From IMG/VR virus record IMGVR_UViG_2049941000_000426: 33,195 nucleotides of DNA. One strand, given 5' to 3'. How positions within the stretch are numbered: position 1 is the first letter of the stretch; each line of letters starts with the position of its first letter. This DNA comes from an uncultured virus (IMG/VR IMGVR_UViG_2049941000_000426) (taxonomy: Duplodnaviria > Heunggongvirae > Uroviricota > Caudoviricetes). The notes beneath the pieces were generated by a model, which ran no database searches, was not told where the DNA came from, and was given only the letters and a program-made list of their open reading frames with translations. Position numbers and translations under genes: made by a program. This document shows positions 5,623-29,546 of the stretch, piece by piece.

Positions 5623-6842
5623 CTACGGGGCCTCCTTGGCGTGAACGTCACGTTCGCCGGATGCGGCGGGTTCTGGTCAAAAGGGAGGTCGGGAACGTCA
5701 TCGTCCCCTTCGTTCGCCAAACCGGCTGGCGGGTTGTACGGCGGAGGGGCCGAGGGCTGCGGAGCTTGGTATGGCTGCGGCGGGTACGGCTGGGCGGCCT
5801 GCTGGACCGTCGGCTGGGCCTGCTGCAAGGGCGCTTGGTAGGGTTGCGGCTGCGGCGGATAGGCCGTGTAGGGCTGGGCATATCCCGTATACCCTGTCTG
5901 GACACGGTTCACGGCGGCCTCCTTCTCGCGTTCAGCGATCGTCCGGATGCTGTCCGTGATGCACTGCACATAGGTCGGGTGGTTCTCGAAGACCTTCACG
6001 ACCGACGTGGCGTCGAACGCCTTCACCAGACGCGCCCCGACTTCCGGCAGGGACGGGTTCCAGTCGATGACCTCGTCCCACGGCTTCCACACCGCCATGA
6101 TGTCGTCCATTGTCAGCGGGATCACCTGCTGGCCGAGGTCGGCGTGATACCATGTCTGGATATTGTTGTTATGGTTGTGCTGATAGGGCGTGAACACGAG
6201 AATGCGGCCATTCTGCGGATCCACGAAATCACCCATCGCGTTGTTCTGGCTGGACCACGGGGCATTCGGGTCGGCCGGTTTGGAAAGCTTCTCGCAAAGC
6301 TCGTTCGTCGCGCTGCGGCTGATCTGCAGGACGACAGGATAGCGCGGGCTGGGCCGCCCTTCCTTGTCCATCTGGATCTCGCCCTTCTGCTTGTAGAGAT
6401 ACCCCTGGACCATCATCACATTGGACGGTCGGGACATCACGTCCTTGCGGTTCGGGCCCATGCCGCACCATGACAGCCAGCTGTCGTCACAGCCCTTGGG
6501 GTCGTTCTTGACTGCGGTCTGGATCGTGTTGATGAACGTCTGGACAGGCCCCACGTTCTCGCCTTCCACCGTCGGGCAGACCATGCTGACCATGTTCGGC
6601 CCAAGGAATGTCACGACGTCGAAGAACGCGATCGCGTTCGTCATCTGCTGGTACTGGTCATCGCCGCGGTTGATGTCTATCAACGGCTCGACTTGCCCGT
6701 TCTCGTCAATCGCGGGAACGACCCGGATCTCTGTCGCCCCTTCCTTCCTGAGGGAATAGCGCCAGTGCTTGGCGCCCGGCTTCACGATGAAGTCGCTGTC
6801 GTTCTTCTGGCTCGTATTGCCAGATCCTCTGAAAAATGCCAT
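5619..6842 (-). CDS. Putative single-stranded DNA-binding protein
   Basis: N-terminal EIRVVP (gp32-like), Q/P-rich linker, acidic DDDVPDLPF motif near the C-terminus; directly upstream of the recombinase. Confidence 0.55.
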   Translation of the reverse strand: MAFFRGSGNTSQKNDSDFIVKPGAKHWRYSLRKEGATEIRVVPAIDENGQVEPLIDINRGDDQYQQMTNAIAFFDVVTFLGPNMVSMVCPTVEGENVGPVQTFINTIQTAVKNDPKGCDDSWLSWCGMGPNRKDVMSRPSNVMMVQGYLYKQKGEIQMDKEGRPSPRYPVVLQISRSATNELCEKLSKPADPNAPWSSQNNAMGDFVDPQNGRILVFTPYQHNHNNNIQTWYHADLGQQVIPLTMDDIMAVWKPWDEVIDWNPSLPEVGARLVKAFDATSVVKVFENHPTYVQCITDSIRTIAEREKEAAVNRVQTGYTGYAQPYTAYPPQPQPYQAPLQQAQPTVQQAAQPYPPQPYQAPQPSAPPPYNPPAGLANEGDDDVPDLPFDQNPPHPANVTFTPRRPRR

Positions 6843-7230: not shown

Positions 7231-10200
7231 TTCTCGCCGCCTCCGCCTTGTCATAGAGAATGTCCAGCTGGTCCATGAACCAGCGCTGCCGTTCGGATGG
7301 GAGGTCCTCCCATGGGGTCGGGACAAGGTTGCCCTTGTCGAGATGCTTGGGGACGATCTCCCACGGTAGGAGAGTATCTCCCGCGAAATACGGTTCGGCC
7401 GACTTCGCCCANNNNNNNNNNGTGGATGAAATTTTCGATACGATAGCCTGCTTTGAACATACTCCACATGGCCGCTTTACTACAGTCCGAGCTGATCCCC
7501 TGAAATTGGCTATTACATGCCTGTGTATATGTGCATCTTGCTCGTTTTCTACCAGTGAGAGTAACGGATTTATACCGGTACATCTCTTTGATATATTTCT
7601 CCTTTTCCGTATCTGTCGGAAGAACCGACGGGGCGGTCTCGTCCAGTTCCGGTCCAGGATTCTCAAGATACTCATACGTCTCAGGGAATGTGTCCTTCCA
7701 TAGTTTCACAAGTGGATAAGCCTCGTCTATTGTGATCGTCACACCATAGTTTTTCGCATATACTATAAATGTGCGGGCACCCAACCCGCCTGGTAAACCG
7801 AACAGTATCAACTACTTACGACTATTTCATCTACTCATTCCTGAGCAGGAGCGCTTCGAGATGTTCACTACAGGTGAACACCCCTACTCCCTTCCGGGAT
7901 AGTCTGTGAACCTTCCTCTGGCGGGCGGTCTGTCCATCCATAGGCTTGGCTGCAGATAGGCATTCGATGCCGTCCCTGCAATTCNNNNNNNNNNTCCATG
8001 AAGGGACCTCGGCCGATCCAAAGCTTTGGCGAGTTGGCGAAGTTTCTTGAACCCCTTGGGGTCCTCTGATTTGAATCCTTTGATGATCTTCCTGTATTGG
8101 TCAACGATCTCCGGGTTGGTGACATCGAATGTCGGGAGCCCTTGGAACAGTCCCTTGATGGTCGTCCCCATGAAGCCGTGGATATCGATGTCGTTGTTGA
8201 TTAGGTCTCTCATCAGGGAGTGACCGAATCTCGTATAGGTTATCTGGGCCAGGGATATAAGCTCCTGCTGATTGTAGTCACAGGAGCACATCACATAACC
8301 GGGGTCGGCGATGTAGATGTTCCTCAGCCTNNNNNNNNNNTGCTGCTTACCATCAGGTATTCGATATGCTTGGCTCTTGCCGTCGTGAATCTGTCGAATG
8401 GCAGCAAGGTGATGGTTTCATCATGGATCATATTTACCATTCGATATCCTGATTTGAATAGATTCCACATGGCCAACTTAGTACAATCGCTAGATAGGCC
8501 CTGGAATTGGCTATTGCATGCCTGCGTGTAAGTACAACAGGCACGCTTTCGTTGAGTAAGAGTCACACACTTATACCGGTGCATCTCTTTCTTTGTTTTG
8601 ATGTCCTCGGAGTCCGTCGGAAGAACAGGCGGTGCGCATTCATCCAGTTCCGGTCCGGGGTCTTCAAGGTATTCGTAGGTTTCCGGGAAGGTGTCCTTCC
8701 ACAGTCTGCAAAGCGGTGTTGCCTCGTCGACGGTGATCTCGACACCATAGTTAGTAGCGTAGATAACAAAGGTCTTTGCTCCAAGACCTCCTGGTAAACC
8801 GAAATCGAGGGCTTTCGCTAACTGACGTAATTTCTTGAACCCCTTGGGGTCCTCTGATTTGAACCCTTTGATGATCTTCCTGTATTGGTCGACAATCTCC
8901 GGGTTGGTGACATCGAATGTCGGGAGCCCCTGGAACAGTCCCTTGATGGTTGTTCCCATGAAGCCATGGATATCAATGTCGTTGTTGATAAGGTCTCTCA
9001 TCAGGGAGTGCCCGAATCGAGTATAGGTTATCTGGGCAAGCGCTATGAGTTCTTGCTGAGAATAATCACAGGAGCACATCACATATCCCGGATTTGATAT
9101 GTACACCTGTCTCAATCTATCATCGCGGGGCAGATTTTGGGTGTTTGGGCCACGGGATGACGTGCGGCCTGTGCTTTTGATCGGGGTATATCTACTATGA
9201 CATCTACCATCATGTCTAACTATCTTTTCGTCTAGATAAGTAGATATCATTTTCTCAGCATGCTTGTACGTCTTGAGTTCCTTCAGGAACTTCAGTCTTT
9301 CCAAGTCCACCTCCGGAATCTGTTCCAACGCCTTGTCATCAAGGGCGTACTTGCCTGTCTCGGTCCTGGGGAACGGCTGTGAGCAGTATTGCTCGGCCTC
9401 CCCCATCAGACGTTGCAGTTGCGTGGCCAGCCCTTCCTGCTTGTATCCGGCGGGCCAGCCTTCGTGCTCGTCCCACCACTCCTGCATTCCCGCGGCGGTG
9501 GATATTCCTTCCTCCGCGTTCATGGCGGCTTTCCAGAGCATGTTGATAAGGGCCTTCGCGGATGCGTTCGCCGGGATGTTGAACGGATGGTCCAGCTCCC
9601 ATACCGACTGGCACTTCTTGATGTACAGCTCGTCTGTCGGCCAGGGGGCGTCCAGGGGATACCCGAACTCCTTCCGGTTGACAGCCGCCAACGACATCCT
9701 CAGATCCTTGATGTTCGGCTTCTCGGGGAAGTTCGTGAAAAGGTTCTTCCGGACATAAGGGATGATCTCCTTTGTCTCGAGCTCCTTCTCGACGTTTATC
9801 CCGAGATCCTTCAGCTTCAGCTTCGCCTCGTCCTTTTCCTTGAGGAAGACATTTCTCAGGTCGGACATCCATTTCCGGTCAACGAGCATCCCGTTCCTCG
9901 AGATGTCGTCGAGGCACAGGAAGCCCTTGACCTGAATGTCCATTGTCGGTGGCATTCTGAAGTCGGGAGCCATCGCGACGGCCGCCAGCCAGGTGGCCAC
10001 AGCGTCGCCGCAGGCGTATTCGGCGTGCACGTCATCGAGGACCATCCCTCGCTCGAACGTGCACCGGATTGCGTTGTCCTTTTCCAAGTCCTGGTTCAGG
10101 ACGTCTTTGACAACACGGGCCAGCTTGGGGTATTCGTCGGCCTCGTCGGACAAGCCGACGGTGCCCATCTTGAACAACACCCACTGGAGACCCGTGTCGA

Positions 10201-10531
10201 TGACTCTTCCCCGGTCGATAATCGGGATCCATTTGTCCAGGCCAAGGACCCGCATGTCGAAGGGGGCGTTGTGGAACACGAAGCACGTGTCCTTCTTGAG
10301 GAGCTCGTCGAGATAGGCCGGAACGTCGTTCCATGTGACCAGATGGACGAAATTGCCACCGTCGTACACGGTCATGACGACAAGGTCCGGCACCTCTCTC
10401 GGCTTGTCCTCGTCGATCAGCAGGGTTTCGGTGTCGATGGCGGTCCAATGACCGGCAAGGACGCCCATGTCCCTTTCCCAGAGGATTCCGGTAAGGGACT
10501 CGCCCGCCTTGTTCACTTCAAAGGTTCTCAT
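7211..10531 (-). CDS. polA: Family A DNA polymerase (3'-5' exonuclease + polymerase); assembled with two alleles of the motif A-C region
   Basis: ExoI IDTET, ExoII FHNAPFD, ExoIII YACGD, STGRTSSRGPNTQN, motif A DYSQQEL, motif B RQLAKALDFGLPGG, motif C IHDE. Intron-less allele 8341-10531; second allele 7422-8330; probable C-terminus 7211-7411. Confidence 0.92.
7803..8015 (-). ncRNA. Group I self-splicing intron (subgroup IA-like) in polA motif B, between D and F codons
   Basis: 5' exon ends GGAU; P1 GGAUC/GGUCC has U.G at the splice site. P4 UGCAGG/UCUGCA; P5 GGCAU/AUGCC. R GGUUCACAGACUA (7900-7912) and S AUGAAAUAGUCG (7819-7830) form P7. P7.1, P7.2 and P8 hairpins present; terminal G at 7803; P10 GCCGAG/UUCGGU. 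Excision restores KALD-FGLPGG. Confidence 0.88.
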
Positions 10532-10992
10532 TTCTGGCCCGTGCTCCCCCATCCGTTCGGACCACGTGTCCCGGATGGCAGTTCGTCGACTTCGATCATT
10601 TCGATGTCGCGGGGGTCGATCGTACCGGGCAGGACGAGCTGAAGGAAGCGTTCGCCCTTCTCGTATTTCCTTGACCGGCCGTCGATGCACAGGAACGCCG
10701 CGTTGATTGATCCACGGTATCCGACATCGATCGAGCCGACGCCGTTCGTGAGAACCATGAAACGCTCCCATACGCTGCTTCGTGCGCGGACGTCGATGCC
10801 GAACACCGGCGGTGAGTCCACGCATACGGCGATGTTGCTCTTGAAGACCGCAACGTACGGGTAGTATGGGAATTCGGGGACCACCACTTCGTCGACGAAG
10901 AGGTCGAGCCCCATGTCATCAGGATGCTTCCGCACCGGAAGCATTGCAGTTGGTGTCAGCCGCTTCACCAGCAGCTTCACTTTCTGGTTCAT
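10528..10992 (-). CDS. dut: Trimeric dUTPase
   Basis: Motifs GLDL, RARSS, GSIDVGYRG, RFLQLV, RGPNGWGSTG. Confidence 0.9.
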   Translation of the reverse strand: MNQKVKLLVKRLTPTAMLPVRKHPDDMGLDLFVDEVVVPEFPYYPYVAVFKSNIAVCVDSPPVFGIDVRARSSVWERFMVLTNGVGSIDVGYRGSINAAFLCIDGRSRKYEKGERFLQLVLPGTIDPRDIEMIEVDELPSGTRGPNGWGSTGQK

Positions 10993-11061
10993 GTTCTTGT
11001 TCCTAGATTGGGTGGAAAAGGCCACGGGCGTCATTTCCCGTGGCCGGCTGGGGATGCGCAC

Positions 11062-11619
11062 TTATTTGCGCTTTCTTGATGGTTTGTTGGTGGCGTCCTT
11101 CTTTTCAGCGTCGTCGATGATCTTCGTCCACTTCGCGACGAACTCTTCAAGGGACTTCGCCGCTTCGGTGGCGTCGCCGAGGTTGATCCGGTCGCGTAGG
11201 GCGCTGACTTCCTTGTTCAGGTCGTCATATGCCTGCTGTTCCTCCTTCTCGAGACTCCGTTCCAGTTCACCGGACCGTTTGTTCCATTCCTCGACGAAAC
11301 CGTCGATCTCGAACGTCGCACGCGGGTCGTTTATGGAGACGTTGAGATCGTCGTTCAGCTTGATGATCCCGTAACGGTCGTAACTGCCGTAGTCGTTCCA
11401 TTCCCGGCAGCAGTTCTCGAACACCGGTAAGAAGCGTTCGATAATGTCCTCCTTGTCGAGCTTCCTGAGCTTCTCCCTGTACATCCGCTGGAAGGCCTCG
11501 ACCAGCCCGTTGAGATTGTTCTTCTTCAATTCCTTGTACTTTTTCGTAAGAGCCGAATAAAGCCGGTTCTTCTCTTCCTGGATCCGGTTGTCCAGATATC
11601 TGACTTGTCGTTGGTTCAT
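11062..11619 (-). CDS. Hypothetical coiled-coil protein
   Basis: 185-aa ORF with GGAG RBS; charged, helical composition. Confidence 0.65.
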   Translation of the reverse strand: MNQRQVRYLDNRIQEEKNRLYSALTKKYKELKKNNLNGLVEAFQRMYREKLRKLDKEDIIERFLPVFENCCREWNDYGSYDRYGIIKLNDDLNVSINDPRATFEIDGFVEEWNKRSGELERSLEKEEQQAYDDLNKEVSALRDRINLGDATEAAKSLEEFVAKWTKIIDDAEKKDATNKPSRKRK

Positions 11620-18496: not shown

Positions 18497-19054
18497 TCAC
18501 CCCATGGCCGCCTCGACCATCTTCTTGAGCTTCGCGATCTGCGCGTCCTTCTCCTCGATGATCTTGTCCCTTGCGTCGATTTCGGACTTCAGAAGCTCGA
18601 TCTCCTTCGGGTCTGCCGTCGCTTTCGCGGCCTGTTCCGTCAGAATACGAACCATGTCTTCAAAGTCCGCCTTGATGTTGTCCAAGTCCGCGTTGAGGTT
18701 CGCCTGAGCCTGTTCGACGGTCTCAGGCTTCTTCTCTGGTTCTGGGGCCGGTGCAGGGGCAGGAGCCGTCTTGGCCTTGCTTTTCTTCGGCTTCTCCGGG
18801 GGCGTGTCGGGAAGATTCTCGATCAACGTCGACGCCGGTTGGGGAGCAGGCGCAGGGGCTGGAGCAGGTGCGGGCTGCGGGGCTGGAGGTTGCGGTGCTG
18901 GAGCCGGTGCGGGCGTCTGGACGGCCTGTGCCAGTTCCCCTGCGTTCTGGAATTGTTGTGTCATACCTTGTAGATCAGTCATAAACTTTTCATCCTGGCT
19001 TGTACTGGGGTAAGGGTATCTTCCCCCAGGCATGTTCAAATCAATGTCGTTCAT
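18497..19054 (-). CDS. Pro/Ala-rich linker + coiled-coil protein
   Basis: PAPAP repeats and a C-terminal coiled coil; ATGA-coupled to sbcC. Confidence 0.65.
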   Translation of the reverse strand: MNDIDLNMPGGRYPYPSTSQDEKFMTDLQGMTQQFQNAGELAQAVQTPAPAPAPQPPAPQPAPAPAPAPAPQPASTLIENLPDTPPEKPKKSKAKTAPAPAPAPEPEKKPETVEQAQANLNADLDNIKADFEDMVRILTEQAAKATADPKEIELLKSEIDARDKIIEEKDAQIAKLKKMVEAAMG

Positions 19055-20839
19055 AGCGATATCACCTGGTCGAATGCGGGGAACAAAGCCTCCTCATGGG
19101 TCGCCACGAAGATGCTCAGCCCCCGTTGTCCGGCGTATTCCGAGAGAGCCTTGAAGGACTCCCCCATCATTTCGAGATTCTGCCGATCCACGCCGTAGGT
19201 CGGCTCATCGAGGATGGCGACCCTCACATTACCGGCAAACATCTGCATTAACGCCAGCCGGTATGCAAGGGCCGTCAGCTTCTGCTGGCCGCCGCTCAGC
19301 TTCGAGAACTCATGCTCCGTACCGGATTGGGTGTCGGTAAAGCGCAGGAGCCCGTCGTCGTTGAACGACGGCTTGTACGGCAGGTTGAACAACGCCAGAT
19401 ATCCGAGAAGCCGGTCATTTATTTGGCCGGCCCCATAGGAGCGTACCGCCTGCTGGACGGCGTCCCTGTGAAAGGCGTTTCGCACGGCTTCCAGGTCCTC
19501 TAGGACTTTCCTCGCCCGGTCCGCCTCCGCGTCGGCTTGCTTCTTTGCGGCTNNNNNNNNNNNNNNNNNNNNNNNNNNNNNNNNNNNNNNNNNNNNNNNN
19601 NNNNNNNNNNNNNNNNNNNNNNNNNNNNNNNNNNNNNNNNNNNNNNNNNNNNNNNNNNNNNNNNNNNNNNNNNNNNNNNNNNNNNATCTGGTCGTTCAGG
19701 GCCTTCACTTGTCCGGCCCACCAGCCTTCGTTCGCCTTCGCCTGGAGACGGTCTTTCTCAAGGGTCTCCCTGCGGGCGATGTCGCGACGGGCGGAATCCG
19801 CCTGTTCGCGTGTGACGGTAGCGGACGACAGCTTGTCGTAGAGGTCGGAAGCGTCCCACCAGTCCTTCGCGATGCGCCGATATTCGTTGCACCGATTCAA
19901 CTTGGCGGACAGCTCCTGACGCTCCTTGACGGCGTCCTCCTTGGCCATCGGAGGTTTCCCGTCCCGATGACCGCACATTGGACAGACGCCCGTGTCCACA
20001 TACCGAATGACGGAGTCGAGATACTGGATCCGCTGGACGACAGCATTGGGGTCCATCGAATCCAGCTCCTCGGCCTCCTTTTCCGAATACTTCTTAAGCT
20101 CCTCGTCGATCCTCTCCCGTTTAGCCAAGGCTTCGGCAAGGGATTGTTCGTCCCTTATCGTCGAATTGACGATCTTGTACAAGGCGGGAAGATCGAACTG
20201 GGCCATCTGCTGTTCAATGGCCTTCACGGAAGCCTCGCTCTCACTTCTCGAGGCCTCCGCCTTTCTGAGCTCCTCCATTGTGTCGTCTATCGAACGTCCG
20301 TCGTCCACATGGCATCTCGGGGCGATCCGTGTGACGCCTTCTTGGAGAATGTCCCTCAGCCGCTCGTACTTCTGGCAATTGAACAGCCGTCCGAACGCCT
20401 CCTTCCGCATGGCCTCCGTCCCCTTCAGCGGGGCGTCCAAGGCGTCCTGAGCAACGAACATGATCCCCTTGAACAAGTCGAAAGGGGTTCCGCTCATCTG
20501 CTGCATCTTCTCGTTGACGGGCGCGGTCCCCTTGATGACGGAACCGTCGTTCCCTTCCAACGACGTGTTGCTCCGGCCGACGGGCCGCATCAAATTGTAG
20601 ACGACCCCGTCATGCTCGAATTCCATCTCGACGCTTCCCGTCTTGGCGCCCCAAGTCACAAGGTCCTTCACCGGTTCATCGCCCAATGGAGTCCCCGTGA
20701 TGGCGTAGGCCATGCTGGACAGGAAGCTGGACTTGCCGGAGCCGTTTTGCCCGACAAGCCCGATGAGCCCCGGCCGTATGGACACCTCCAGCGACCGGTG
20801 GCGCTTGTAGTTGGTCAGTTTAAGTTTCCGAATCTTCAT
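19051..20839 (-). CDS. sbcC: Rad50/SbcC ATPase (gap 19553-19685)
   Basis: Walker A GQNGSGKS, Zn hook CPMC, signature LSGGQ, Walker B ILDEP, H-loop ATH. Confidence 0.9.
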
Positions 20840-21224
20840 CTTCCGATTCTTCGTCCTCCTCTATGAACTTTCGATAAGCCTCCTTGTCCATCAGGTCCTT
20901 CTTCCACTCCTGGTCCTCGATGTTCACCTTGTAGAGCCAGTTCTCAGGCTCCTCCGACCGTTCGTTCAGGGCTTCTCCGGAAATGTCGTTCACGGCTATG
21001 ACCTTGCAGTCGAACGGGCAGACGATGGACTCGACGGCCTTGGTGGACTCGACCGACCCCATCTCCTCGCCTCTTTTTACAACGCGTTGGGAAATTCCGA
21101 GATCGGCGTAGACAATACCCGCCATCTGGTCGGTTGCAAACTCCGACAAGCCGATGAGCGCCATCCAACCGTCGCTGGAAGGGCGTATCCACACATGTTC
21201 CTTCGAATACAGAAGACTGCTCAT
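20820..21224 (-). CDS. gcvH: Glycine cleavage H-like lipoyl-carrier protein (134 aa)
   Basis: YSKEHVWI...IGLSEFA...GSVESTKAVESIVCPFDCKVIAVN...WLYKV; lipoyl Lys retained in ESTKA. Confidence 0.85.
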   Translation of the reverse strand: MSSLLYSKEHVWIRPSSDGWMALIGLSEFATDQMAGIVYADLGISQRVVKRGEEMGSVESTKAVESIVCPFDCKVIAVNDISGEALNERSEEPENWLYKVNIEDQEWKKDLMDKEAYRKFIEEDEESEDEDSET

Positions 21225-22240
21225 AGTTTCTTCCTTTTGAGGTATTCGGAGAGCTCGGCCGAGGGGTCCTGCGTGTCGAGCAGGGCCTGCGCAAGGTCGA
21301 ACTGCTCCCTTGTGAGATTTTCCGAAAGCCATCCGTTGACGACGGAGCCTATGTCGACCGACGTGTCCCGTGTCTCCTCGATGGCGCGTATCGTCTCGCC
21401 GGAACGGGCGTTGCAGACGAAGAGAAGCCTTTCCTTCCAGAGTTCCTGAAGGGCCTCCGCCTTGGCCGTGTCCTCGTTCCGGTAGTCCAGAAGGACGACC
21501 GGACGGTTCATGTCCTTGCAGGCGGCCAGCTCCTCCAGCCTGTCGTTGTCGATCCCGTCGTCGAGACTGACGGAAAGATAACGCCGTGTCCTGACTTCCC
21601 TCCACTCGACCTTCGAAGTCTCCGGGTCGACGACGAAGAAACCATGCCCCTTGTCTACCTCGTCGGCGCGATGGAGGGCAAGGCTTCCGGGGGAATGGAT
21701 CTTCCCGACGGAGGAATGGACATGGACATGGCCCGCCATGACCATCCCGACGTGTTCGGGAATGTCTTCGGCGGACACCTGCCATGTCTCCTCGAATCCA
21801 AGAAGATGACGGAATCCCGTGTGCATGACCAGCATGTCCACGGGGTCTATCGTCGCAAGATGCTCATGGAGCGTGTTCGTGCTTCTCGTGAAGGGGATGC
21901 CTGATATCTTGAATCCGTTTTTCAGCGTCACAGGGGAAAGTTGAAGCTGGACGGCCCCGAAGATGGAGGGTCTGGGCACTTCCTCCATGTCATGATTCCC
22001 CGGGATGAAATAGCAGGGTCTTTCACCGAGCAGGTCAAGCCCCATCCGGAAGGCGGTCTCGTCGAGGCCTGTCGGATAGGGCGTGTCGAATATGTCACCG
22101 GCGAGAACCAGAACGCCGTCAGGGTCGTCCGCCACCGTGTAGCAGAGCTGCGCCCAGGCGTTGTACTGGTCGCCGTTGATGTCCGGACGGCTTTTCCATG
22201 TCTGCCGTCGTAAATGCAAATCAGCTGCAACGTAGATCAT
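21221..22240 (-). CDS. sbcD: Mre11/SbcD nuclease
   Basis: ADLH, AGDIFD, PGNHD, MH, AGHVH, SPGS; its ATG overlaps the RT stop (ATGA). Confidence 0.88.
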   Translation of the reverse strand: MIYVAADLHLRRQTWKSRPDINGDQYNAWAQLCYTVADDPDGVLVLAGDIFDTPYPTGLDETAFRMGLDLLGERPCYFIPGNHDMEEVPRPSIFGAVQLQLSPVTLKNGFKISGIPFTRSTNTLHEHLATIDPVDMLVMHTGFRHLLGFEETWQVSAEDIPEHVGMVMAGHVHVHSSVGKIHSPGSLALHRADEVDKGHGFFVVDPETSKVEWREVRTRRYLSVSLDDGIDNDRLEELAACKDMNRPVVLLDYRNEDTAKAEALQELWKERLLFVCNARSGETIRAIEETRDTSVDIGSVVNGWLSENLTREQFDLAQALLDTQDPSAELSEYLKRKKL

Positions 22241-23742
22241 CTTCCGACCACCTCCAGAAAGTCCTTTTCGCACCGGGCGTCCCAGCCTTCCTTGTCGACG
22301 CCCCTCATCCATGCCCTGACTCCGCGAAGGCGCAGTTTGTCTTCGTCCGTCAGCTTTTTCTTCCCGCTGGCGGCGTTGTGAAGCTCCGCCCTGACCTTGT
22401 CGCGGTCCTGACGGGGTATTGACAGCTTGTCGGTTATCGACACGCCGGTGATCTTCTGGGAGTGGCCGTGTTTGAACACCCCGATCTTCCTGAAATTGAC
22501 GCTGATATCCGGATAGGTCATGATGCCCCCGACAACCGTGTTCCGCGCCATTGTGATATCGTCTTTGTCTGCGACGGAGCTGAGGGTCGTCGTGCTGTCG
22601 TCGGCGTAGATGGTCGACGTGAAATGACACTTCAGACGGCTTTTCAGCCGGCTCTGGAGAATNNNNNNNNNNGGTAGGTCATGATGCCCCCGACAACCGT
22701 GTTTCGCGCCATTGTGATATCGTCTTTGTCCGCGACGGAGCTGAGGGTCGTCGTGCTGTCGTCGGCGTATATAGTCGACGTGAAATGACACTTCAGACGG
22801 CTTTTCAGCCGGCTCTGGAGAATGTTGTTGAAGCTCTTCATGAAAACGTTCGCAAGAGCGGGTGAACACGGGGAGCCCTGCGGAAGACGTTCATCCAGAC
22901 AGCAGAGTCTTAGAAGGATGTGGTCCAGCATGATCTCGGCGGAAATGATTTCCGGAAGGAATTCCGTGTTCCCGCGCCCTATTTCGTGGACTCCTTTCTC
23001 CCGCAGTTCACTAAGACGCTNNNNNNNNNNCCCCGCGCCCTATTTCGTGGACTCCTTTCTCCCGCAGTTCACTAAGACGCTCCGCCGGAATGCTCCAGTC
23101 GGAGGACGTCTCAAGGATGTTCATCAGGATGCGCGGGAATTTCCTCGGCTTCTTGCTGACGAACAGGGAATAGCCGAGGTCGTTCAGCAGGAAGTTCATG
23201 ATGGAGCTACGCGTGACGGACATGAAGAAATCGCGGATGTCCACCTTGATGAGCGTCTTGTCCTTTCCGAACACGCCGTCCTCCACATGGGCCTGCGCAT
23301 TTGTCAGGACGCCCCTTGTCGGGACGAACCCGTGGACGCATTTCGGCGGGCGGCTCTTGGCGTACCACCATCGGTTGAGGATCACCTGCTGGAACCGCTT
23401 GAGCAGTTTCTCCGGCGCTTCGATTGTCCGGAACCCGCCGTCCTTCTTTTTCAGTTTGAACGTCGTGTAGTGGTTGTGCGCGTTCTCAGGGTTGTCAAGG
23501 ATGTCGTCCGCGATGGACAGAATCCCCTCGACATCGTCCGGGTCGTCGATTGTCAGCCGTACGAAATCCCTGAGAAGCTTTCTCGCGTCATCCTCCTTCA
23601 GCTTCATCTCCTTCATCGTGAGAACAAGATTTCTCGCATGGAAGTACCCGACCGGCTTGGAGGTCGGCGTCACACCGGCCATTCTTGCCGCTACCCAGTC
23701 AGCAGGAGTGGTGGGCGGGGTGATGATGTCAAACTTGTCCAT
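22237..23742 (-). CDS. Retron-type reverse transcriptase (two gaps with overlap duplicates; ~430 aa reconstructed)
   Basis: KKKDGGFRTIEAP, HGFV, region X NAQAH, DIRDFF, LPQGSPCSPALAN, YADD, region Y QKITG; no maturase, HNH or Cas1 domain visible. Confidence 0.9.
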
Positions 23743-24574
23743 TGACGACCTCCTTTTCCAGTTTCCTCCTGGACTTCATGTATTCCTCGATGGTCACTTC
23801 CTTCGGTTTGAAATAGACTTTCACAATCTCCTCCTTTGTCTGGCCGGGCCAGTAATCCTCAAGGAAGAAGTCCAGATCGTCCCCGTAGGTCGTTTTCAGT
23901 TCCTCCGTATGCCCCGACAGCTGGATGATCTTCTTTATCTTCTTGTCGACGTCAAGATCCTTCAGTTCGTCGTTCTCAAGAATCCGGATAACCGACATGA
24001 CCCTTTCCATCATTCGCCCGTATGTCTCTGTCTTCTTCGGAACGGCATGGAACGGGCTGAACCGCATGTTGAAAGGAGCTGTCAGCGAGATGATATACTT
24101 GTCGTCCAGCGTCAGCAGATCCGTGATTTCGTCCGGCATGACAGGCAGCGTGTCGTTGTTCGGGCTTCCTCCGTACGGAACGAGCCAGCCGCAATCATAA
24201 ACGAACTCCGGCCTGCTTTCAGCGATGCTCTTGTTGTACACGTAGAACGAAAGCCGATGGACCGGCGTCCTGTCGTCGATGAAACAGCAGCAATTCGGAC
24301 AGAGATAGCAGTGACGGTTGAACAGGCAGTGCATGCACTTGCTCGTCCCGACGTCGTCCCTTCTGCAATCCCTCGAGAATTCGTCAAGAATGAGATACAG
24401 CGTATCTTTCCGCTTCAGCCCATCCACCGGCTCCGGTTTGAGCATAAGAAACGCTTGCAGGCTGTCGTACCCCGCTGTCAGCAACAATCTCTTCGCGTAT
24501 AGGTACAGGTTCACCGGGATCTGCCCCCGCGGCGGATTCTCCGGAATCGTTATCTTCCTCTTCTTCGGTGTCAT
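23729..24574 (-). CDS. Cys-rich hypothetical protein upstream of the RT
   Basis: CMHCLFNRHCYLCPNCCC cluster; stop overlaps the RT start; start codon uncertain. Confidence 0.65.
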   Translation of the reverse strand: MTPKKRKITIPENPPRGQIPVNLYLYAKRLLLTAGYDSLQAFLMLKPEPVDGLKRKDTLYLILDEFSRDCRRDDVGTSKCMHCLFNRHCYLCPNCCCFIDDRTPVHRLSFYVYNKSIAESRPEFVYDCGWLVPYGGSPNNDTLPVMPDEITDLLTLDDKYIISLTAPFNMRFSPFHAVPKKTETYGRMMERVMSVIRILENDELKDLDVDKKIKKIIQLSGHTEELKTTYGDDLDFFLEDYWPGQTKEEIVKVYFKPKEVTIEEYMKSRRKLEKEVVNGQV

Positions 24575-25538
24575 CTTCGTTTACCTCTTCCGGGAAACCC
24601 GGATTGTCTTCCTGTGGTTGTTCTTCCTNNNNNNNNNNTTCTCCGGAATCGTTATCTTCCTCTTCTTCGGTGTCATCTTCTTCCTCTTCCGGGAAACCCG
24701 GATTGTCTTCCTGTGGTTGTTCTTCCTGTGGTTGTTCTTCTTCCGAAGTTTCCTCCGGTTCGTCTGAATCCGTCTTGATGTCTTTTTCGATATTGTGGTA
24801 GTGCATGGTTACCTCCATCATCTCGCCCTTCAGCTTGGACAGGACCTCTGGCCCGTTCGGTGTCAGAAGGGTGAAAAGGATGTTCATCATCATGCTCGCC
24901 GACATGAAGTTCTCCGCGAAGGTCTGATCGCCTTCGGGGGAGTTAGCAAGCTCCTCGCAGGAGATCGTCCCGCGGTCGCCCGTGCTGTCCGTCAGAATCT
25001 CGGGGTGGCCTTCCTCGATGGGACGGCCGACCTTCACGTAAAGGTAGTCAGGATCGAGCCACCGTCCGTACAGGTCGGCGGTCGCGTATGTCCCCGCGCA
25101 TCCTCCTTGAATGACGACCACCGGGGACGAATTGCTTTCCATCAGGGATCCGACCCATCTGGACATGACAAGCCTTGCGGGGTGGTTGTCCACACAGGCC
25201 ATGATGACCAGCGGAAAACCATTCCGCAGAGGCTGGAAAATGCTGGTCACGGTCTCGTTCGTCACCCACTCCTGCTCGGCGAGGAACTTTACTCCGGAGC
25301 GGTTGTACTTGGAGGACATATAGATGTCCCGCCACGCGACCGCCTTGTTCCGTCCAAGCATCCGTCCTGCGGCTTTCTGCCGCGGGATGTTCCGCTGGGA
25401 ATACGTGTCCCTGTCGACGAAAAGAAGGTTCTTTAGCCCCCAGTCGAAGATGGTCGACCGGGTGAATGCGAACATGTTGTCCGCGATGATCCCCCCGACT
25501 CCCCCGAGGCCGACAATCGCCATGTTGAATTCCCTCAT
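24384..25538 (-). CDS. E1/ThiF-family ubiquitin-like activating enzyme with acidic tail
   Basis: VGLGGVGG, VDRD...NIPRQ...NKA, CVDNHPAR, and SCEE candidate catalytic Cys. Confidence 0.88.
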   Translation of the reverse strand: MREFNMAIVGLGGVGGIIADNMFAFTRSTIFDWGLKNLLFVDRDTYSQRNIPRQKAAGRMLGRNKAVAWRDIYMSSKYNRSGVKFLAEQEWVTNETVTSIFQPLRNGFPLVIMACVDNHPARLVMSRWVGSLMESNSSPVVVIQGGCAGTYATADLYGRWLDPDYLYVKVGRPIEEGHPEILTDSTGDRGTISCEELANSPEGDQTFAENFMSASMMMNILFTLLTPNGPEVLSKLKGEMMEVTMHYHNIEKDIKTDSDEPEETSEEEQPQEEQPQEDNPGFPEEEEDDTEEEEDNDSGEXXXXEEQPQEDNPGFPEEVNEDDTEEEEDNDSGESAAGADPGEPVPIREEIVADSGVRQPASVSYAQTGAGGWAEAERYAVSHS

Positions 25539-25540
25539 GG

Positions 25541-26353
25541 TCACCCCTCCTGACGACCGAACATGGTATTGCCTTTTGCCTCGTTGGCCGTCGGCGGATA
25601 CCAAAGTTCATTGTCGTCCTTGCTTTCCTTCTTGTCCTTCTTCTTGTTCGACTTGGCCTTCTTCGTCTCCTCGAGACTGAACAGGTCCTCCGGGATGTCA
25701 AGGGTCTTCCGTTCCCCGAAATCCACGACATCCTCCAAGGGCACGTCGATGAACACGCCGGAGAACGCCAAGCGGCTTCTGACCGCCCTTCCCCTGTCGA
25801 GCCAGCCAGCGACCAGCTGGATTCCATACTCCGTCGTCTTCTGGAAATGGTCGTCTTTTCCGCTCCATTCGGGGGCCATGACGTGGTGGGAGTGGAAACA
25901 GCCGATCCGACGGGCGTCCTCCGGCGGGGTTTGATCGGTGAAGGCGAAGTTCTTCACCCACATGCCGCCCTGGTCGGTATCCCAGTCGGTGGACGCGCCG
26001 GAGACGATCTGCTTCGGGATCAGATACCAGAAGCCGGTCGAAGGGGAATACCACAAGTGGATCCCGATCTCGGTGTGCTTCTTCAGATAGACGTCCCACA
26101 TGACATTGCAAAGGAAGTCCAGGTCGTCGGAAGGGATTTTCGGCCCATTCCATCTCATGTCCGTATGGGCGTCCTTCACAGCGCCGGGAAGCTTGTCTAT
26201 CGGAAGGATGACGTTCATGTCCTCGTTTCCGGTGACACGGAAGAAACCGTTCTTCGCTATCACGAAGCAGTCCTCCTCCGGCCAAAAGTCCATTCTGTCG
26301 TTCAGGCACAGGGGAAGCCCCGTGCAGCTTTCCGCTTCTTTCAGTTCGATCAT
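25541..26353 (-). CDS. Prokaryotic JAB/JAMM metallopeptidase
   Basis: HTE upstream Glu and HSHHVMAPEWSGKD, matching HxHx7Sx2D. Confidence 0.82.
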   Translation of the reverse strand: MIELKEAESCTGLPLCLNDRMDFWPEEDCFVIAKNGFFRVTGNEDMNVILPIDKLPGAVKDAHTDMRWNGPKIPSDDLDFLCNVMWDVYLKKHTEIGIHLWYSPSTGFWYLIPKQIVSGASTDWDTDQGGMWVKNFAFTDQTPPEDARRIGCFHSHHVMAPEWSGKDDHFQKTTEYGIQLVAGWLDRGRAVRSRLAFSGVFIDVPLEDVVDFGERKTLDIPEDLFSLEETKKAKSNKKKDKKESKDDNELWYPPTANEAKGNTMFGRQEG

Positions 26354-26643
26354 ATCAATGAGTCCTCCAAATCTTCAATTTCCGTAAACTCGTCCAGAAG
26401 GGCGAGGCTCTTCCTGCGCTCCTCACCGTCTTCCATCAAGATCGCCACTTCAGTGTCGACGCTCGCCCTTGCGCGGCGATAGTCCGCCGTCATGTACTCC
26501 CCATAAAGCCACTGGTCGACGCTTGGCGGGATCTTCCTGGTCATGGCGTCCCTTGTCTCCTCCTCGGTCAGCAAATCCGTCTCCGGGGTGTTCATGATCA
26601 TTTCGATCAGCCAGCTTGTGTCCTTATCCTCGTGCGTCGTCAT
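26350..26643 (-). CDS. Small acidic hypothetical protein within the Ubl cassette
   Basis: MTTHEDKDT start with GGGAGG RBS; ATGA-coupled to JAB. Confidence 0.6.
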   Translation of the reverse strand: MTTHEDKDTSWLIEMIMNTPETDLLTEEETRDAMTRKIPPSVDQWLYGEYMTADYRRARASVDTEVAILMEDGEERRKSLALLDEFTEIEDLEDSLI

Positions 26644-27276
26644 ACTTGCCTCCCATCGCGTTCCCGATGAAATCGCCAAGGTTGTCATGCCGGGAGCGCT
26701 TCATCCCGAAATCCTGATTCAGCGCGATCCCGGGGTTGTCCTTCGAAAGGCTCTCCCATTTCCCCAGCGTATCGACAAGCAGTCCGCCCGTGTCGATCAT
26801 GGACGGCATGGCGGGCGACAGATCATCGTTCAGGAAACTGCTGAACAGCTTGAACATGAACTTCCGGCAGACCAGGGCCGGCTTGTCCGTCTTGTCCCCT
26901 TCCTGGATGATGTTCCCAGTGCACATGAGGCACGAGGTGCCCCACTGGTTCGGGAGCGGTGCGACATAGATGTCGTCGTCGAGGGTCTCGATGTTCTTGT
27001 AGGTGGCGCACAGGAAACAGCGCCGCCAGTCGTACGTCTTCTCGTCGACCTTGTAGAACTTGCAGAAGACCCATATCCACGGCATCGACACGTCGAACAG
27101 GAAGCCCTGCCCTCTTCCGGTATACTCCGGATCCTTCCGATAGTCCCGGCTGACGCCCTGTTTCCGCTGGGCGAAATGGATCGTGCGCATAGTCGGATTG
27201 CACTGCATCAGGAACCCGATTGCCTGGTCGTTCTCGGCGAACACACGGCACGCCCCGTCGCTCCCGGGGAGAACCG
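26624..27276 (-). CDS. Prokaryotic E2-like protein (5' end in gap)
   Basis: APLPNQWGTSCLMCTG resembles the APxxN...CxG active site of prokaryotic E2-like families; lies between Ubl and JAB. Confidence 0.65.
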
Positions 27277-27294
27277 NNNNNNNNNNACGCCTGA

Positions 27295-27528
27295 TTAGCG
27301 TCCGCCCCCGCCTTTCGGGAACGAAATGGTGATGAAATCGTTGTTGAGGATTTCCGAATCATTCGCCAGTTCGACGCCCGACCGATTGAACACGCCGTTT
27401 TCCGTCGGGATCTGATAGTCCCGGCAGGCGGCCTTAAGGTCTTCCACGGTGAACTTGCCCGTCAGGTCGTCCTTTCTCAGACAGACCGTCTGGGCGTTCA
27501 CCTTCACACGAATTGAATAACTAGCCAT
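27295..27528 (-). CDS. Ubiquitin-like (beta-grasp) protein, 77 aa
   Basis: Size, TVEDLK helix pattern and C-terminal KGGGGR; first gene of the E2/JAB/E1 cassette. Confidence 0.7.
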   Translation of the reverse strand: MASYSIRVKVNAQTVCLRKDDLTGKFTVEDLKAACRDYQIPTENGVFNRSGVELANDSEILNNDFITISFPKGGGGR

Positions 27529-29546
27529 TCTGTTTCTCCGTTCGTTTGATGAATTGCCGTTGCAGGGCGAGATCGATCGCCCTGTCCAGTTCCACGGGGA
27601 TGTACCCCCAGATCTCCGCGCTCATGTCCAGCCTCGCCGGCCCGTACACCCCGGGCAGGGAGGCCGGTACGGTGCCGTGGCAGTGCGCGTGCAGATGGAC
27701 GCTTCCCTCATTCCGCTCCGGCCAGCTCATGAAGGGATAGTGGCTCATCCACACCGCGACAGTGTCCCCCCCCCCCCCGCCCGCCNNNNNNNNNNAAATC
27801 CCTGAGAAGCTTCCGTGCGGTCTCCTCCTTCAGCTTCATCTCCTTCATCGTGAGAACAAGATTTCTCGCGTAGAAGTACCCGACCGGCTTGGAGGTCGGC
27901 GNNNNNNNNNNGACCCTTCCACACCGGAAAAAGAAAAAGGGCGGAACCCCGTGGACGCCCCTTTCAGTCCTTGCCGACCGCCGCGCACGCGACGTCCAGT
28001 TGAAGGAGCAAGGCGATGCAGATCCCTACCGCCGGGGTTGTTCCGCCAATCAGCATCGGCAGCGTCACAAGCCCCAGCGACATGAGTTCCAATACAATCA
28101 CCTTGTTCAGAAGCGCCTTCCGGTCGTGGCTATTTCGACCGGACCGGTCTCTTCTCCTTCTCGACATTCACTTTCCTCTGGATCTTCAACGAGTTCACGG
28201 TTCCACCGGAATATGCGGCTTCACCGGGTTTTCTGTTGAGCGTACCCACGCCCTTCGCCATCAAGTAATCGTCCACCCTGTTCATGTCTGTTCCCTTTTC
28301 CTTGTCATGCAATCGAACATTGATTTAACCGACTTTTCGGGAGATACCATATTTCGGGTGCGAACTGAAATCAAACGAAAGGTTGAGGGGGGAAAGATTC
28401 ACGGGGTTCCGTCCAAATTGAAAAGCCTTTTACGAAGTATCTCGTCGGGTGGAGAACACCGTTCGGAACCCGACGCGAAACTGACCCGGAGACCGGGGGA
28501 CGAGGCTNNNNNNNNNNTCCGCCGGCATGGCTGAAGACAAGCATCATTCCGTCGGCGAAAGGAAACCCTCCGCAATTCCACTGGAACCGGTTTTTGTTCT
28601 TATAAAGGCTGTCTTTCGAATTCGCAGATGAACCAAATCGAGCAAGCAATTTGGTTCATCAGGGAATTTGAAGGGACAGCCGAACAGATGCGGGCCGATA
28701 TTCCCGCAGCGACGGGATAGCCCGCCGCAGTCCAACAAACACTGTGTCTTGTTTCCCAATACCGGAAATTCCGAGAGGCCTCGGAATTTCGCACAAGAAT
28801 ACGGGACGTCCAAGCTGTCCCGCGGAAGGGAAGCCCTCCCACATCGGAAAAAGAAAAAAGAAAAAAGGGCGGAACCCCGTGGACGCCCCTTTCAGTCCTT
28901 GCCGACCGCCGNNNNNNNNNNNNNNNNNNNNNNNNNNNNNNNNNNNNNNNNNNNNNNNNNNNNNNNNNNNNNNNNNNNNNNNNNNNNNNNNNNNNNNNNN
29001 NNNNNNNNNNNNNNNNNNNNNNNNNNNNNNNNNNNNNNNNNNNNNNNNNNNNNNNNNNNNNNNNNNNNNNNNNNNNNNNNNNNNNNNNNNNNNNNNNNNN
29101 NNNNNNNNNNNNNNNNNNNNNNNNNNNNNNNNNNNNNNNNNNNNNNNNNNNNNNNNNNNNNNNNNNNNNNNNNNNNNNNNNNNNNNNNNNNNNNNNNNNN
29201 NNNNNNNNNNNNNNNNNNNNNNNNNNNNNNNNNNNNNNNNNNNNNNNNNNNNNNNNNNNNNNNNNNNNNNNNNNNNNNNNNNNNNNNNCTCGGCGAACCC
29301 CGAGTCCTTCGCCATGAAGGAGTCGTGGTTCCCGAGAATGAGCGTCTTTCTTCCAGGAAGCCGTTCGGCCCAGTACGACGGGCGTTTCAAGGCGAAGTCG
29401 CCAAGGATGTACACCTCGTCGTCTTGCGATACGGCCCTTTTCCAGTTTTCCTCCAACAGGAAATTCATCTCGTCCACCGATACGAATTTCCTGTACGGAA
29501 GGATGGTGTCGTCATCGAAATGACAACAACCAATCACGAATTTCAT
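27521..29546 (-). CDS. Calcineurin-like metallophosphoesterase, split by scaffolding (N-half 29289-29546; C-half 27521-27765)
   Basis: GCCHF, ILGDF and GNHD in the N-half; SHYP and HAHCH in the C-half. Confidence 0.75.
27928..27960 (-). terminator. Putative intrinsic terminator (second assembled copy ~28848-28888)
   Basis: Minus-strand GGGCG...CGCCC stem followed by TTTTTCTTTTT, immediately after the ORF stop at 27964. Confidence 0.5.
27964..28167 (-). CDS. Small hydrophobic (possibly 2-TM) protein
   Basis: Basic N-terminus, then VIVLELMSLGLVTLPMLIG and AVGICIALLLQLDVACAAV. Confidence 0.5.
   Translation of the reverse strand: MSRRRRDRSGRNSHDRKALLNKVIVLELMSLGLVTLPMLIGGTTPAVGICIALLLQLDVACAAVGKD
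28130..28285 (-). CDS. Small basic protein (51 aa)
   Basis: AAGGAAAAGGGA upstream of ATG; MNRVDDYLMAKG...; promoter upstream. Confidence 0.5.
   Translation of the reverse strand: MNRVDDYLMAKGVGTLNRKPGEAAYSGGTVNSLKIQRKVNVEKEKRPVRSK
28346..28374 (-). promoter_or_regulatory. Putative sigma70 promoter
   Basis: Minus strand TTGATT-17 nt-TATGGT. Confidence 0.5.
28557..28840 (-). ncRNA. Highly structured non-coding RNA; candidate retron msr-msd
   Basis: Terminal pairing of 28822-28840 with 28557-28573 encloses several hairpins (e.g. perfect 11-bp stem 28765-28790) and a 75-nt hairpin (28607-28681); no credible ORF. Confidence 0.55.

Follow-up and report, generated by a model that had tools for sequence, protein, structure and literature searches.

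A retron-clade reverse transcriptase beside ubiquitin-like conjugation genes in an uncultured phage

What is a retron-type reverse transcriptase (RT) doing in the replication region of a phage? The gene in question lies at 22237–23742, on the minus strand, of IMG/VR record IMGVR_UViG_2049941000_000426, a stretch of 33,195 nucleotides (nt) from an uncultured virus of the Caudoviricetes; this whole stretch is referred to as the window. We find that the JAB and E1 enzymes of ubiquitin-like protein (Ubl) conjugation, with or without an E2, a Ubl or a protein that we call Y, recur next to the retron-like RTs of many phage contigs, and do so in several lineages of the RT. On balance, and by a modest one, we favour the view that the window RT closes a conserved phage cassette whose genes run in the order Ubl, E2-like protein, small open reading frame (ORF), JAB, E1, Y and RT. 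It would then be the intact retron-clade RT of a large uncultured phage, neither a stray retron nor a helper of SbcCD.

The genes concerned, in the direction in which they are read, are:

27295–27528, minus strand: candidate Ubl of 77 residues with the C-terminus ...KGGGGR, proposed from its size, position and Gly-Gly tail
26624–27244, minus strand: E2-like protein, matched by phmmer to the E2 ORFs of relatives (1.7e-7 and 4.4e-6)
26350–26688, minus strand: small ORF of 112 residues between the E2-like and JAB genes; no family matched in Pfam, PADLOC or PHROGs
25541–26353, minus strand: JAMM/JAB metallopeptidase of 270 residues, with the motif HSHHVMAPEWSGKD at residue 154 (HxHx7Sx2D)
24384–25604, minus strand: ThiF-family E1-like adenylating enzyme (Pfam ThiF 9.6e-11, 41.7 bits against a cut-off of 28.1)
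23729–24574, minus strand: protein Y, 281 residues, the Cys-rich ORF of the initial annotation, with a CxxC...C...C cluster and YDCGW and PxGE..Y..R motifs
22237–23742, minus strand: retron-clade RT with a true length of about 427 residues (PADLOC retron RT models, retron RTs of the PDB, colinear relatives, bridging contigs)
19051–22240, minus strand: SbcD (21221–22240), a GcvH-like protein (20820–21224) and SbcC (19051–20839, with a gap of 133 N), from Pfam and PHROGs

SbcD, the GcvH-like protein and SbcC are downstream members of the same tight operon, with overlapping junctions. From the Ubl to SbcC the visible intergenic spaces do not exceed about 50 nt; 205 nt are hidden between the Ubl and the E2-like protein, where the N-terminus of the latter runs into the gap 27277–27286 and a Logan contig supplies the missing letters. 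The RT begins with an ATG at 23742, overlapping by 14 nt the gene for Y, whose stop is at 23729, and its own stop has ATGA (22240–22237) in common with the start of SbcD. Both overlaps had been reported in the initial annotation of the sequence, and both are there.

Conjugation genes beside retron-like RTs in other viral loci

Does this arrangement occur elsewhere? A profile scan of IMG/VR yielded 48 viral loci with retron-like RTs, many of them on contigs of 135–215 kb, and 54 loci were scanned altogether. They were compared with the window proteins and by Pfam, and E1 and JAB genes were sought with iterated hidden Markov models in loci of up to 20 kb. One gene order is common to the window and the loci L012 and L024: a Prok-E2_D-type E2, a small ORF, a JAB, a ThiF E1, a protein Y of about 290 residues and the RT. 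The genes of the cassette are co-oriented, with junctions that overlap or almost do so. L012 and L024 have one or two small ORFs between E1 and Y, the window none. Upstream of its E2, L024 carries a tandem ThiS-type Ubl, and the 77-residue ORF of the window stands at the equivalent place. The components also occur in other arrangements, an E2 and a JAB preceding the RT in L007, and an E2, a JAB and an E1 lying just downstream of it in L046.

In all, an E1, a JAB or both stand beside the RT in 15 of the 54 loci, every one of them among the 48 viral loci. Since L051 and L052 are identical, these amount to 14 distinct loci. All E1 and JAB matches are on the strand of the RT and within about 3.6 kb of it, and none was found elsewhere in the loci. 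The assignments withstood closer inspection: Pfam ThiF scored above its cut-off in each of the seven weak cases checked, and the JAMM motif is present in all 14 JAB ORFs of the loci as well as in the window JAB. L012 and L024 lie in complete genomes of 175–178 kb with terminal repeats, and the single ThiF gene of each adjoins the RT.

A further group of 11 RTs, on contigs of 44–58 kb, forms a clade of its own (L025, L027, L028, L034, L039, L042, L045, L049, L051/L052 and L053), which we refer to as the small-genome clade. Ten of its members have JAB and E1 directly before the RT; the remaining locus, L052, is cut off and shows the end of the E1 alone. Here a protein of 460–540 residues comes before the JAMM peptidase and ThiF; the RT is next, and behind it lie a hyper-structured region and then an SNF2 helicase. 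The three 460–540-residue proteins that were inspected carry an HPHxMRxxCWG-like motif. Six loci of the clade were inspected at their upstream end, and in each a Ubl-like ORF of 76–82 residues comes first, ending in K[AS]D[GS][GA]x in five of the six.

How are the cassette RTs related to one another? The RT tree (FastTree) has 135 rows, namely 46 locus RTs, 23 members of the window RT family and 66 background representatives, with no named outgroups; two locus RTs shorter than 200 residues and background rows outside 250–650 residues were left out. In it the cassette RTs occupy at least four separate positions. The gene downstream of the RT varies among them: it is SbcD in the window, SbcC in L031, RuvB in L007, L012 and L024, and SNF2 helicase in the small-genome clade. 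The initial annotation had tied the RT to the neighbouring SbcCD, SSB and RecA machinery. That tie finds no support, for adjacency of RT and SbcC(D) is confined to the window and L031, and the recurrent partner is the upstream Ubl-conjugation module together with Y.

L031 is the closest syntenic relative of the window's replication genes, with the order SbcC, helicase, primase and polymerase (helicase identity 38–58%). It, too, has an RT in this slot ahead of SbcC, whereas lack of the RT in relatives at this locus was an outcome that the initial annotation had named as refuting. Where the window has its Ubl genes, upstream of the RT, L031 encodes a DUF2201 metallopeptidase/VWA protein (8166–9524) and a PAPS-reductase-like protein (4867–5862).

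The individual proteins of the window cassette are related to those of the other loci to varying degrees. The E1 is homologous to those of L012 (E 5e-29) and L024 (7e-24), and matches the PADLOC E1-E2 models weakly, at 22 bits at best. The JAB matches the corresponding ORFs of L024 and L012 (E 7.5e-17 and 4.4e-16), which themselves have weak, sub-threshold Pfam Prok-JAB matches. The E2-like ORF, itself without a Pfam match, is related to the Prok-E2_D proteins of L012, L024 and L007; the L024 ORF, to which its phmmer E-value is 1.7e-7, passes the Pfam Prok-E2_D cut-off with 35.4 bits. A small ORF lies between E2 and JAB in L012 and L024 as well. The 77-residue candidate Ubl matches no PADLOC or PHROGs family, and its positional counterpart in L024 matches Pfam ThiS (3e-6). 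Y is a genuine gene, with four homologues at 35–40% identity (P0158–P0161), invariant Cys and His residues and an invariant CxxC...C...C cluster. It matches no known family in Pfam, PHROGs or PADLOC. The columns that it has in common with the Y of L012 and L024 are CxxC, Y and PxGE..R.

An acidic repeat in the C-terminal part of E1 (24584–24682) is duplicated around the N gap 24629–24638. Because other contigs omit 99 nt here (joint 24583 to 24683), the acidic tail of the E1 and the apparent 190-nt overlap with Y are uncertain.

Class and integrity of the RT

What kind of RT is this? The initial annotation called it retron-type, from its NAQAH, YADD and ITG motifs. All three motifs are present in the RT pieces, and by sequence the RT belongs within the retron clade. 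Each of the three pieces into which the gene is divided in the window (see below) matches PADLOC retron RT models, and for all 14 family members scanned (E ≤ 1e-25) there are solely retron RT models among the matches listed. RT_XIII is the best model for P0001, P0002 and 12 of those 14. With the relative P0004, the best 25 of 26 PADLOC families at E ≤ 1e-25 are all retron RT models, RT_XIII leading RT-TIR_XII by about 12 bits (153.5 versus 141.2). A profile of 23 family sequences scores 147–195 bits on the solved retron RTs Ec86, Ec67, Kva2, Ec78 and Ec83 of the PDB, against at most 81 bits on group II intron-type RTs, 70 on Cas6-RT-Cas1 and 49 on Drt2.

As hallmarks of retron RTs the text of Mestre 2020 (PMC7736814) gives NAXXH (region X) and VTG (region Y), and NAQAH and ITG are their counterparts in the window RT. 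Twenty of the 23 family members have a strict NAxxH at this position of the alignment, the three without it there being P0012 (TCAAVH), P0029 and P0030. [VI]TG is present in 21, with VVG in the other two, and YADD or FADD in 22; P0031 gave no motif, the LPQG anchor of the script having missed there. The motif script located a catalytic box in 53 of the 69 locus and family RTs, and in none of these does it read YxDN. The window RT is predicted to be catalytically competent. Members of its family exceed classical retron RTs by about 100 residues; they have an extension of about 90 residues at the N-terminus, an insert of 60–90 residues between DFFxS and LPQG, and a C-terminal GWDxRCE motif of their own.

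An exhaustive profile search of 1.84 billion proteins gave 29 representatives at E ≤ 1e-30; behind them in the ranking come the numerous ordinary retron RTs. The relatives of the window RT form one clade with 100% local support in the tree. Close RT relatives with genomic context were absent from IMG/VR when searched with P0001, a 3-sequence profile or SbcD; matches in GenBank phages reach at most 33% identity; and the metagenome and genome collections gave distant RTs alone (L001–L006), all without E1 or JAB. Membership in the 13 described retron types was not found, the partner genes here being Ubl, E2, JAB, E1 and Y. Because the RT_XIII margin is narrow and the type XIII partners are absent, we place the RT in the retron clade, outside the described types. 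Those partners, WH-SWIM and HEAT/ARM proteins, were not found in the region, for whose unassigned ORFs Pfam gave no family.

Other kinds of element were considered. A group II intron is rejected, since no group II intron RNA matches the window at E ≤ 1 and the family profile gives group II RTs far lower scores than retron RTs. A diversity-generating retroelement is rejected too: the RT is of retron type and the sole repeat of the RT region (27796–27901) is due to mis-scaffolding; no Avd-specific search was made. The idea that the C-terminal Gly of the RT is an E1 substrate was also dropped. Gly among the three final residues is confined to the closest subfamily (six of seven members) and is absent from other cassette RTs. 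Since RT C-termini are not conserved across clades, there is no support for conjugation of the RT through its own end.

Is the gene intact? The initial annotation read a single ORF at 22237–23742. An RT is encoded there; the single open frame is not, for two ten-letter N gaps, at 22663–22672 and 23021–23030, interrupt it. The flanks of each gap are duplicated: 22512–22662 equals 22673–22823 (151 nt, 5 mismatches) and 22970–23020 equals 23031–23081 (51 nt, 1 mismatch). Such duplicated flanks are typical scaffolder output when overlapping contigs of slightly different strains are butted together. The three pieces, P0001 (237 residues), P0003 (115) and P0002 (141), tile the relatives P0004–P0006 (428–446 residues, about 51% identity) without loss, so the true gene has about 1284 nt, or 427 codons. 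LTNAQAHV lies in the N-terminal piece, TIYADD and QKITGVSI in the C-terminal piece, and TIYADD in both P0003 and P0002, and Pfam RVT_1 matches two of the pieces. The join at 23021–23030 is bridged by contigs from the runs of two other studies, one of which (X5) omits exactly 61 nt, the other (X6) having 93 nt where the window has 154. The support for the join at 22663–22672 consists of the 151-nt overlap and the colinear alignment. We conclude that the RT gene is intact once the scaffold joins are collapsed.

Candidate template RNAs and the surrounding scaffold

If the RT is retron-like, where is its template? The initial annotation saw no room for a non-coding RNA (ncRNA) next to it, and we agree: no msr-msd is contiguous with the window RT, which is packed between coding genes by the overlaps of 14 and 4 nt, and with Rfam neither a retron family nor any other of relevance turned up in the window, L007, L012 or L024. 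The minus strand of 19000–29000 was scanned for folding in 208 windows of 160 nt (mean z −0.97); the junction of Y and RT gave no outstanding signal. Nor did Rfam and the folding scan reveal a canonical ncRNA overlapping the upstream ORF, a finding that the initial annotation had said would refute its reading. The strongest signal of the scan, at 28600–28759 (z −6.4), falls within this feature:

28518–28860, no strand assigned: candidate ncRNA, the most structured stretch scanned; 343 nt, minimum free energy −149, z −7.5; no Rfam family

It contains several perfect hairpins and the longest inverted repeat of the window (28615–28672, with 24-nt arms). On the Logan contig of 7052 nt it lies about 1 kb past 27774, at the Ubl-proximal end of the cassette, and is followed by 27912–28504. 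We regard it as a candidate ncRNA, situated upstream of the cassette on mis-ordered pieces, with an unproven link to the RT.

What lies after the RT in the other cassettes? In the small-genome clade nine distinct loci were folded, L045 being left out as it ends inside the RT, and in eight of them the 373–504 nt after the RT fold with z from −4.0 to −12.3. The 731 nt after the RT of L024 give z −10.8. For comparison, the gaps between E1 and RT in the small-genome clade, upstream of the RT, give −0.7 to −5.1, and the regions after the RT in ten loci without E1 give +0.8 to −4.8, with L031 alone below −3. The structured regions after the RT mix short hairpins with stems of 29–42 bp. Their general shape is that of msr-msd as presented in the text of Mestre 2020 (PMC7736814), which makes them candidates. 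A hairpin motif common to three of the E1-to-RT gaps was dropped, as it is not conserved elsewhere. In L028 the structured region (10934–11361) includes a tRNA-like stretch (GGTTCGAATCC T-arm) and a direct repeat of about 28 nt at both of its ends.

The scaffold that makes up the window has many gaps, with 29 N runs in all. Every recognisable gene is on the minus strand, and together, by Pfam and PHROGs, they form a phage-type replication and recombination region. In agreement with the initial annotation, the RT has SbcD, GcvH and SbcC downstream and a UvsX-like recombinase farther on. Also recognised were a family A DNA polymerase, dUTPase, primase, DnaB/KaiC-like ATPase, helicase, ThiF protein and RuvC-like resolvase. 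The sequencing runs that contain window sequence are labelled bovine gut metagenome, the best of them (X1–X4) coming from a single sample, perhaps the one from which the window was assembled, and no RNA run is among those listed. Logan contigs aligned to the window show that its pieces at 27796–28911 are in the wrong order. One of these pieces derives from the RT:

27796–27901, minus strand: strain-variant copy of RT codons ~25–60, mis-scaffolded; record 7 of X3 runs 23161–23563, then 27796–27901

A true second RT copy, or a repeat in the style of a diversity-generating retroelement, is thereby ruled out; the piece is a scaffolding artefact, the continuation of a strain-variant RT contig.

Further observations concern the same scaffold. 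On the Logan contig 988 letters of other sequence separate 27774 from 28518; next come 28518–28831 and then 27912–28504. A metallophosphoesterase gene is seemingly split by the mis-ordered pieces (27521–27785 and ~29289–29500, minus strand). A terminator-like hairpin with a T-run is present twice, at 27925–27975 and 28855–28911, consistent with one locus on two scaffold pieces. It is unusual for a nuclease operon to include a lipoyl carrier such as the GcvH-like protein (Pfam GCV_H 2.5e-19) that separates SbcD from SbcC here. The gene for the family A DNA polymerase (7254–10915, minus strand) is in several pieces with N gaps, and may carry an intron because a weak Rfam group I intron match lies inside it (7863–7984, 28.8 bits, E 0.0011, gathering score 50).

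Readings of the cassette and known systems

How might such a cassette work? The RT, being retron-like, would copy part of a structured ncRNA into a small DNA. In most of the other cassettes the template would lie just after the RT; in the window phage it would be displaced, or absent from that place. The complex of RT and nucleic acid would then act together with the Ubl-conjugation enzymes. By analogy with the tripartite plan of retrons, these enzymes and Y would stand where the toxin effector stands as the third component. The most likely arena would be conflict during infection, either with host defences or with competing phages; such a role is the most economical guess. Tentatively, we go one step further and entertain the possibility that the cassettes constitute a new retron-like class, in which a full Ubl cascade (Ubl, E2, JAB, E1) replaces the toxin. 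A sensor or scaffold made up of the RT, a hairpin-rich ncRNA and the DNA copied from it might there gate, or be gated by, Ubl conjugation onto proteins of host defences or rival phages. The phages would use such a system themselves during infection, and it would be the first link of reverse transcription to protein tagging.

Several observations count against the cassette as we read it. A coupling of the RT with the Ubl enzymes, functional or physical, we infer from the genes alone. Within the window's own RT clade, genomic context is seen for the window alone. The RTs of the 11-member small-genome clade are without strict NAxxH/VTG. The homology between the window Y and the ORF directly upstream of the RT in L012 and L024 is weak (hhalign probability 58%, E 1e-4), and Y matches no known fold: Foldseek against the PDB is empty at E ≤ 0.001, ESM Atlas gave no usable match, and the best Z of 4.8 in VIA-align wide is confined to a small helical bundle at the N-terminus. 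Folding shows nothing structured after the RT in the window, L012 (z −1.3), L046 (−1.6), L007 (−2.9) or L053 (+1.2). Moreover, the nine post-RT regions that were aligned have no common sequence (36% column identity), so neither a covariation test nor a covariance model is possible. To these are added the 33 of 48 viral RT loci that lack E1 and JAB, and L031, in which an RT of another clade occupies the same slot before SbcC in a complete 195-kb genome without ThiF.

The last two points are also what the main rival would lead one to expect, as is the scatter of the cassette RTs, which are not monophyletic. According to it the RT and the Ubl genes are independent neighbours in an accessory hot spot, an orphan retron-like ‘moron’ RT, with or without an ncRNA, beside a separate Ubl module with which it does not cooperate. 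L031 suggests that the RT slot may be such a hot spot, as it holds an RT there with no Ubl genes. Furthermore, the RT cassettes always lie at the edge of a replication or recombination module, marked by SbcCD in the window and L031, by RuvB in L007, L012 and L024, and by SNF2, AAA_24 or ThyX in the other clade. Mere neighbourhood accords poorly, however, with the co-orientation of all the genes and their overlapping or nearly overlapping junctions, with the confinement of E1 and JAB matches to the vicinity of the RT, or with the sole ThiF gene adjoining the RT in two complete genomes of 175–178 kb. The unit JAB–E1–RT is, besides, kept in 11 of 11 members of one RT clade, the truncated L052 included. 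We consider this rival somewhat improbable, and a serious competitor nonetheless.

An alternative that follows the initial annotation makes the RT a replication or recombination factor, supplying single-stranded DNA or primers to the adjoining SbcCD, UvsX and replication machinery. The overlap of its stop with the start of SbcD speaks for this, as do the position of the L031 RT directly before SbcC and the RuvB or helicase genes that follow the RT in other cassettes. Yet the adjoining recombination gene differs from lineage to lineage (SbcD, SbcC, RuvB, SNF2), the constant feature being the upstream JAB and E1. Also counted against it is that no retron-clade RT is known to act in replication, and we judge it unlikely. 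The further suggestions of the initial annotation, a domesticated RT, a decoy and a template supplied in trans, are conjectural. Could the element instead be a canonical bacterial defence retron of known type, such as type XIII, carried as cargo with its usual effector? RT_XIII is indeed the best PADLOC model for P0001, P0002 and most of the family members scanned, but by the small margin given above; no SWIM/winged-helix or HEAT/ARM partner was found and no ncRNA is adjacent. We disfavour this explanation and give it very little weight.

Finally, the scaffold itself might be at fault, the RT being foreign to the phage locus or the gene broken. With 29 N runs, mis-ordered pieces at 27796–28911 and one misplaced RT fragment, the suspicion is natural. 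It is largely refuted, and we accord it the least credence of all: the N-terminal RT piece adjoins Y and E1 in contiguous sequence, as the C-terminal one adjoins SbcD, GcvH and SbcC, and the middle piece has overlaps of 51 and 151 nt with its two neighbours. Each side of the locus is covered by a Logan contig (5596 and 7052 nt), contigs of other studies bridge one join, and the pieces tile the relatives exactly.

If the cassette reading is true, it adds a partner class that is absent from the searched text of the retron classification (Mestre 2020), and it means that phages themselves deploy retron-type RTs. It would also offer a tractable route to how reverse-transcribed DNA relates to protein conjugation, the cassettes having five to seven genes and complete genomes of 175 kb being at hand. 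New compact pairs of RT and structured RNA would be of interest for retron-based DNA production tools.

How does the cassette compare with known systems? Retrons are known as bacterial anti-phage systems in which an RT and an ncRNA are combined with a toxic effector. The Ubl conjugation operons of bacteria, among them the Bil/ISG15-like antiviral systems, are a separate and recently recognised arm of immunity. The window RT resembles the bacterial retron RTs (Ec86/Eco1, Ec67, Ec78, Ec83, Kva2) in fold family and in its NAxxH, VTG and YADD motifs. It differs from them in being longer, in being encoded by a phage within a replication-region operon, in lacking an adjacent msr-msd, and in having Ubl enzymes rather than a toxin as partners. 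In the cyclic oligonucleotide-based anti-phage signalling system (CBASS), Cap2 (E1-E2) and Cap3 (JAB) regulate a nucleotidyltransferase. By analogy alone, this is again a polymerase encoded with E1/E2-like and JAB enzymes that could switch it on or off by conjugation. The differences are that the window E1 matches E1-E2 models weakly and that the window has a separate candidate Ubl.

Type XIII retrons, the best RT model match, have a WH-SWIM and a HEAT/ARM protein as partners according to the text of Mestre 2020 (PMC7736814); neither these nor the type XIII ncRNA were found in the window. Staphylococcus jumbo phages encode a retron-like RT (MarsHill gp206) described as of unknown function, with a 1.2-kb non-coding region upstream, and its authors also consider exclusion of co-infecting phages (bioRxiv 10.1101/2020.12.14.422802). 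As the parts of that preprint at hand present it, gp206 is, like the window RT, a retron-like enzyme of a large virulent phage with no recognised effector; the two are ~27–30% identical, and those parts mention no Ubl, E1 or JAB genes.

Targeted literature searches found no paper tying retron-like RTs to Ubl, E1 or JAB genes. ‘ThiF’ and ‘ubiquitin’ are absent from the main text of Mestre 2020 (PMC7736814) and of the 2026 SPIRE retron survey, and ‘reverse transcriptase’ from that of Iyer, Burroughs and Aravind 2006 (PMC1779556), although the supplementary tables of these papers could list such neighbours. The prokaryotic Ubl operons described in the main text of the last paper have four components, namely Ubl, E2-like, JAB and E1-like proteins. 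The window cassette has the JAB and the E1-like protein, with putative counterparts of the other two. The cassette relatives match Pfam ThiF, Prok-JAB, Prok-E2_D and ThiS, and the candidate Ubl ends in Gly-Gly plus one to three extra residues. In contrast to those operons, the genes here reside in phage genomes, are joined in three loci by protein Y, and end in a retron-type RT.

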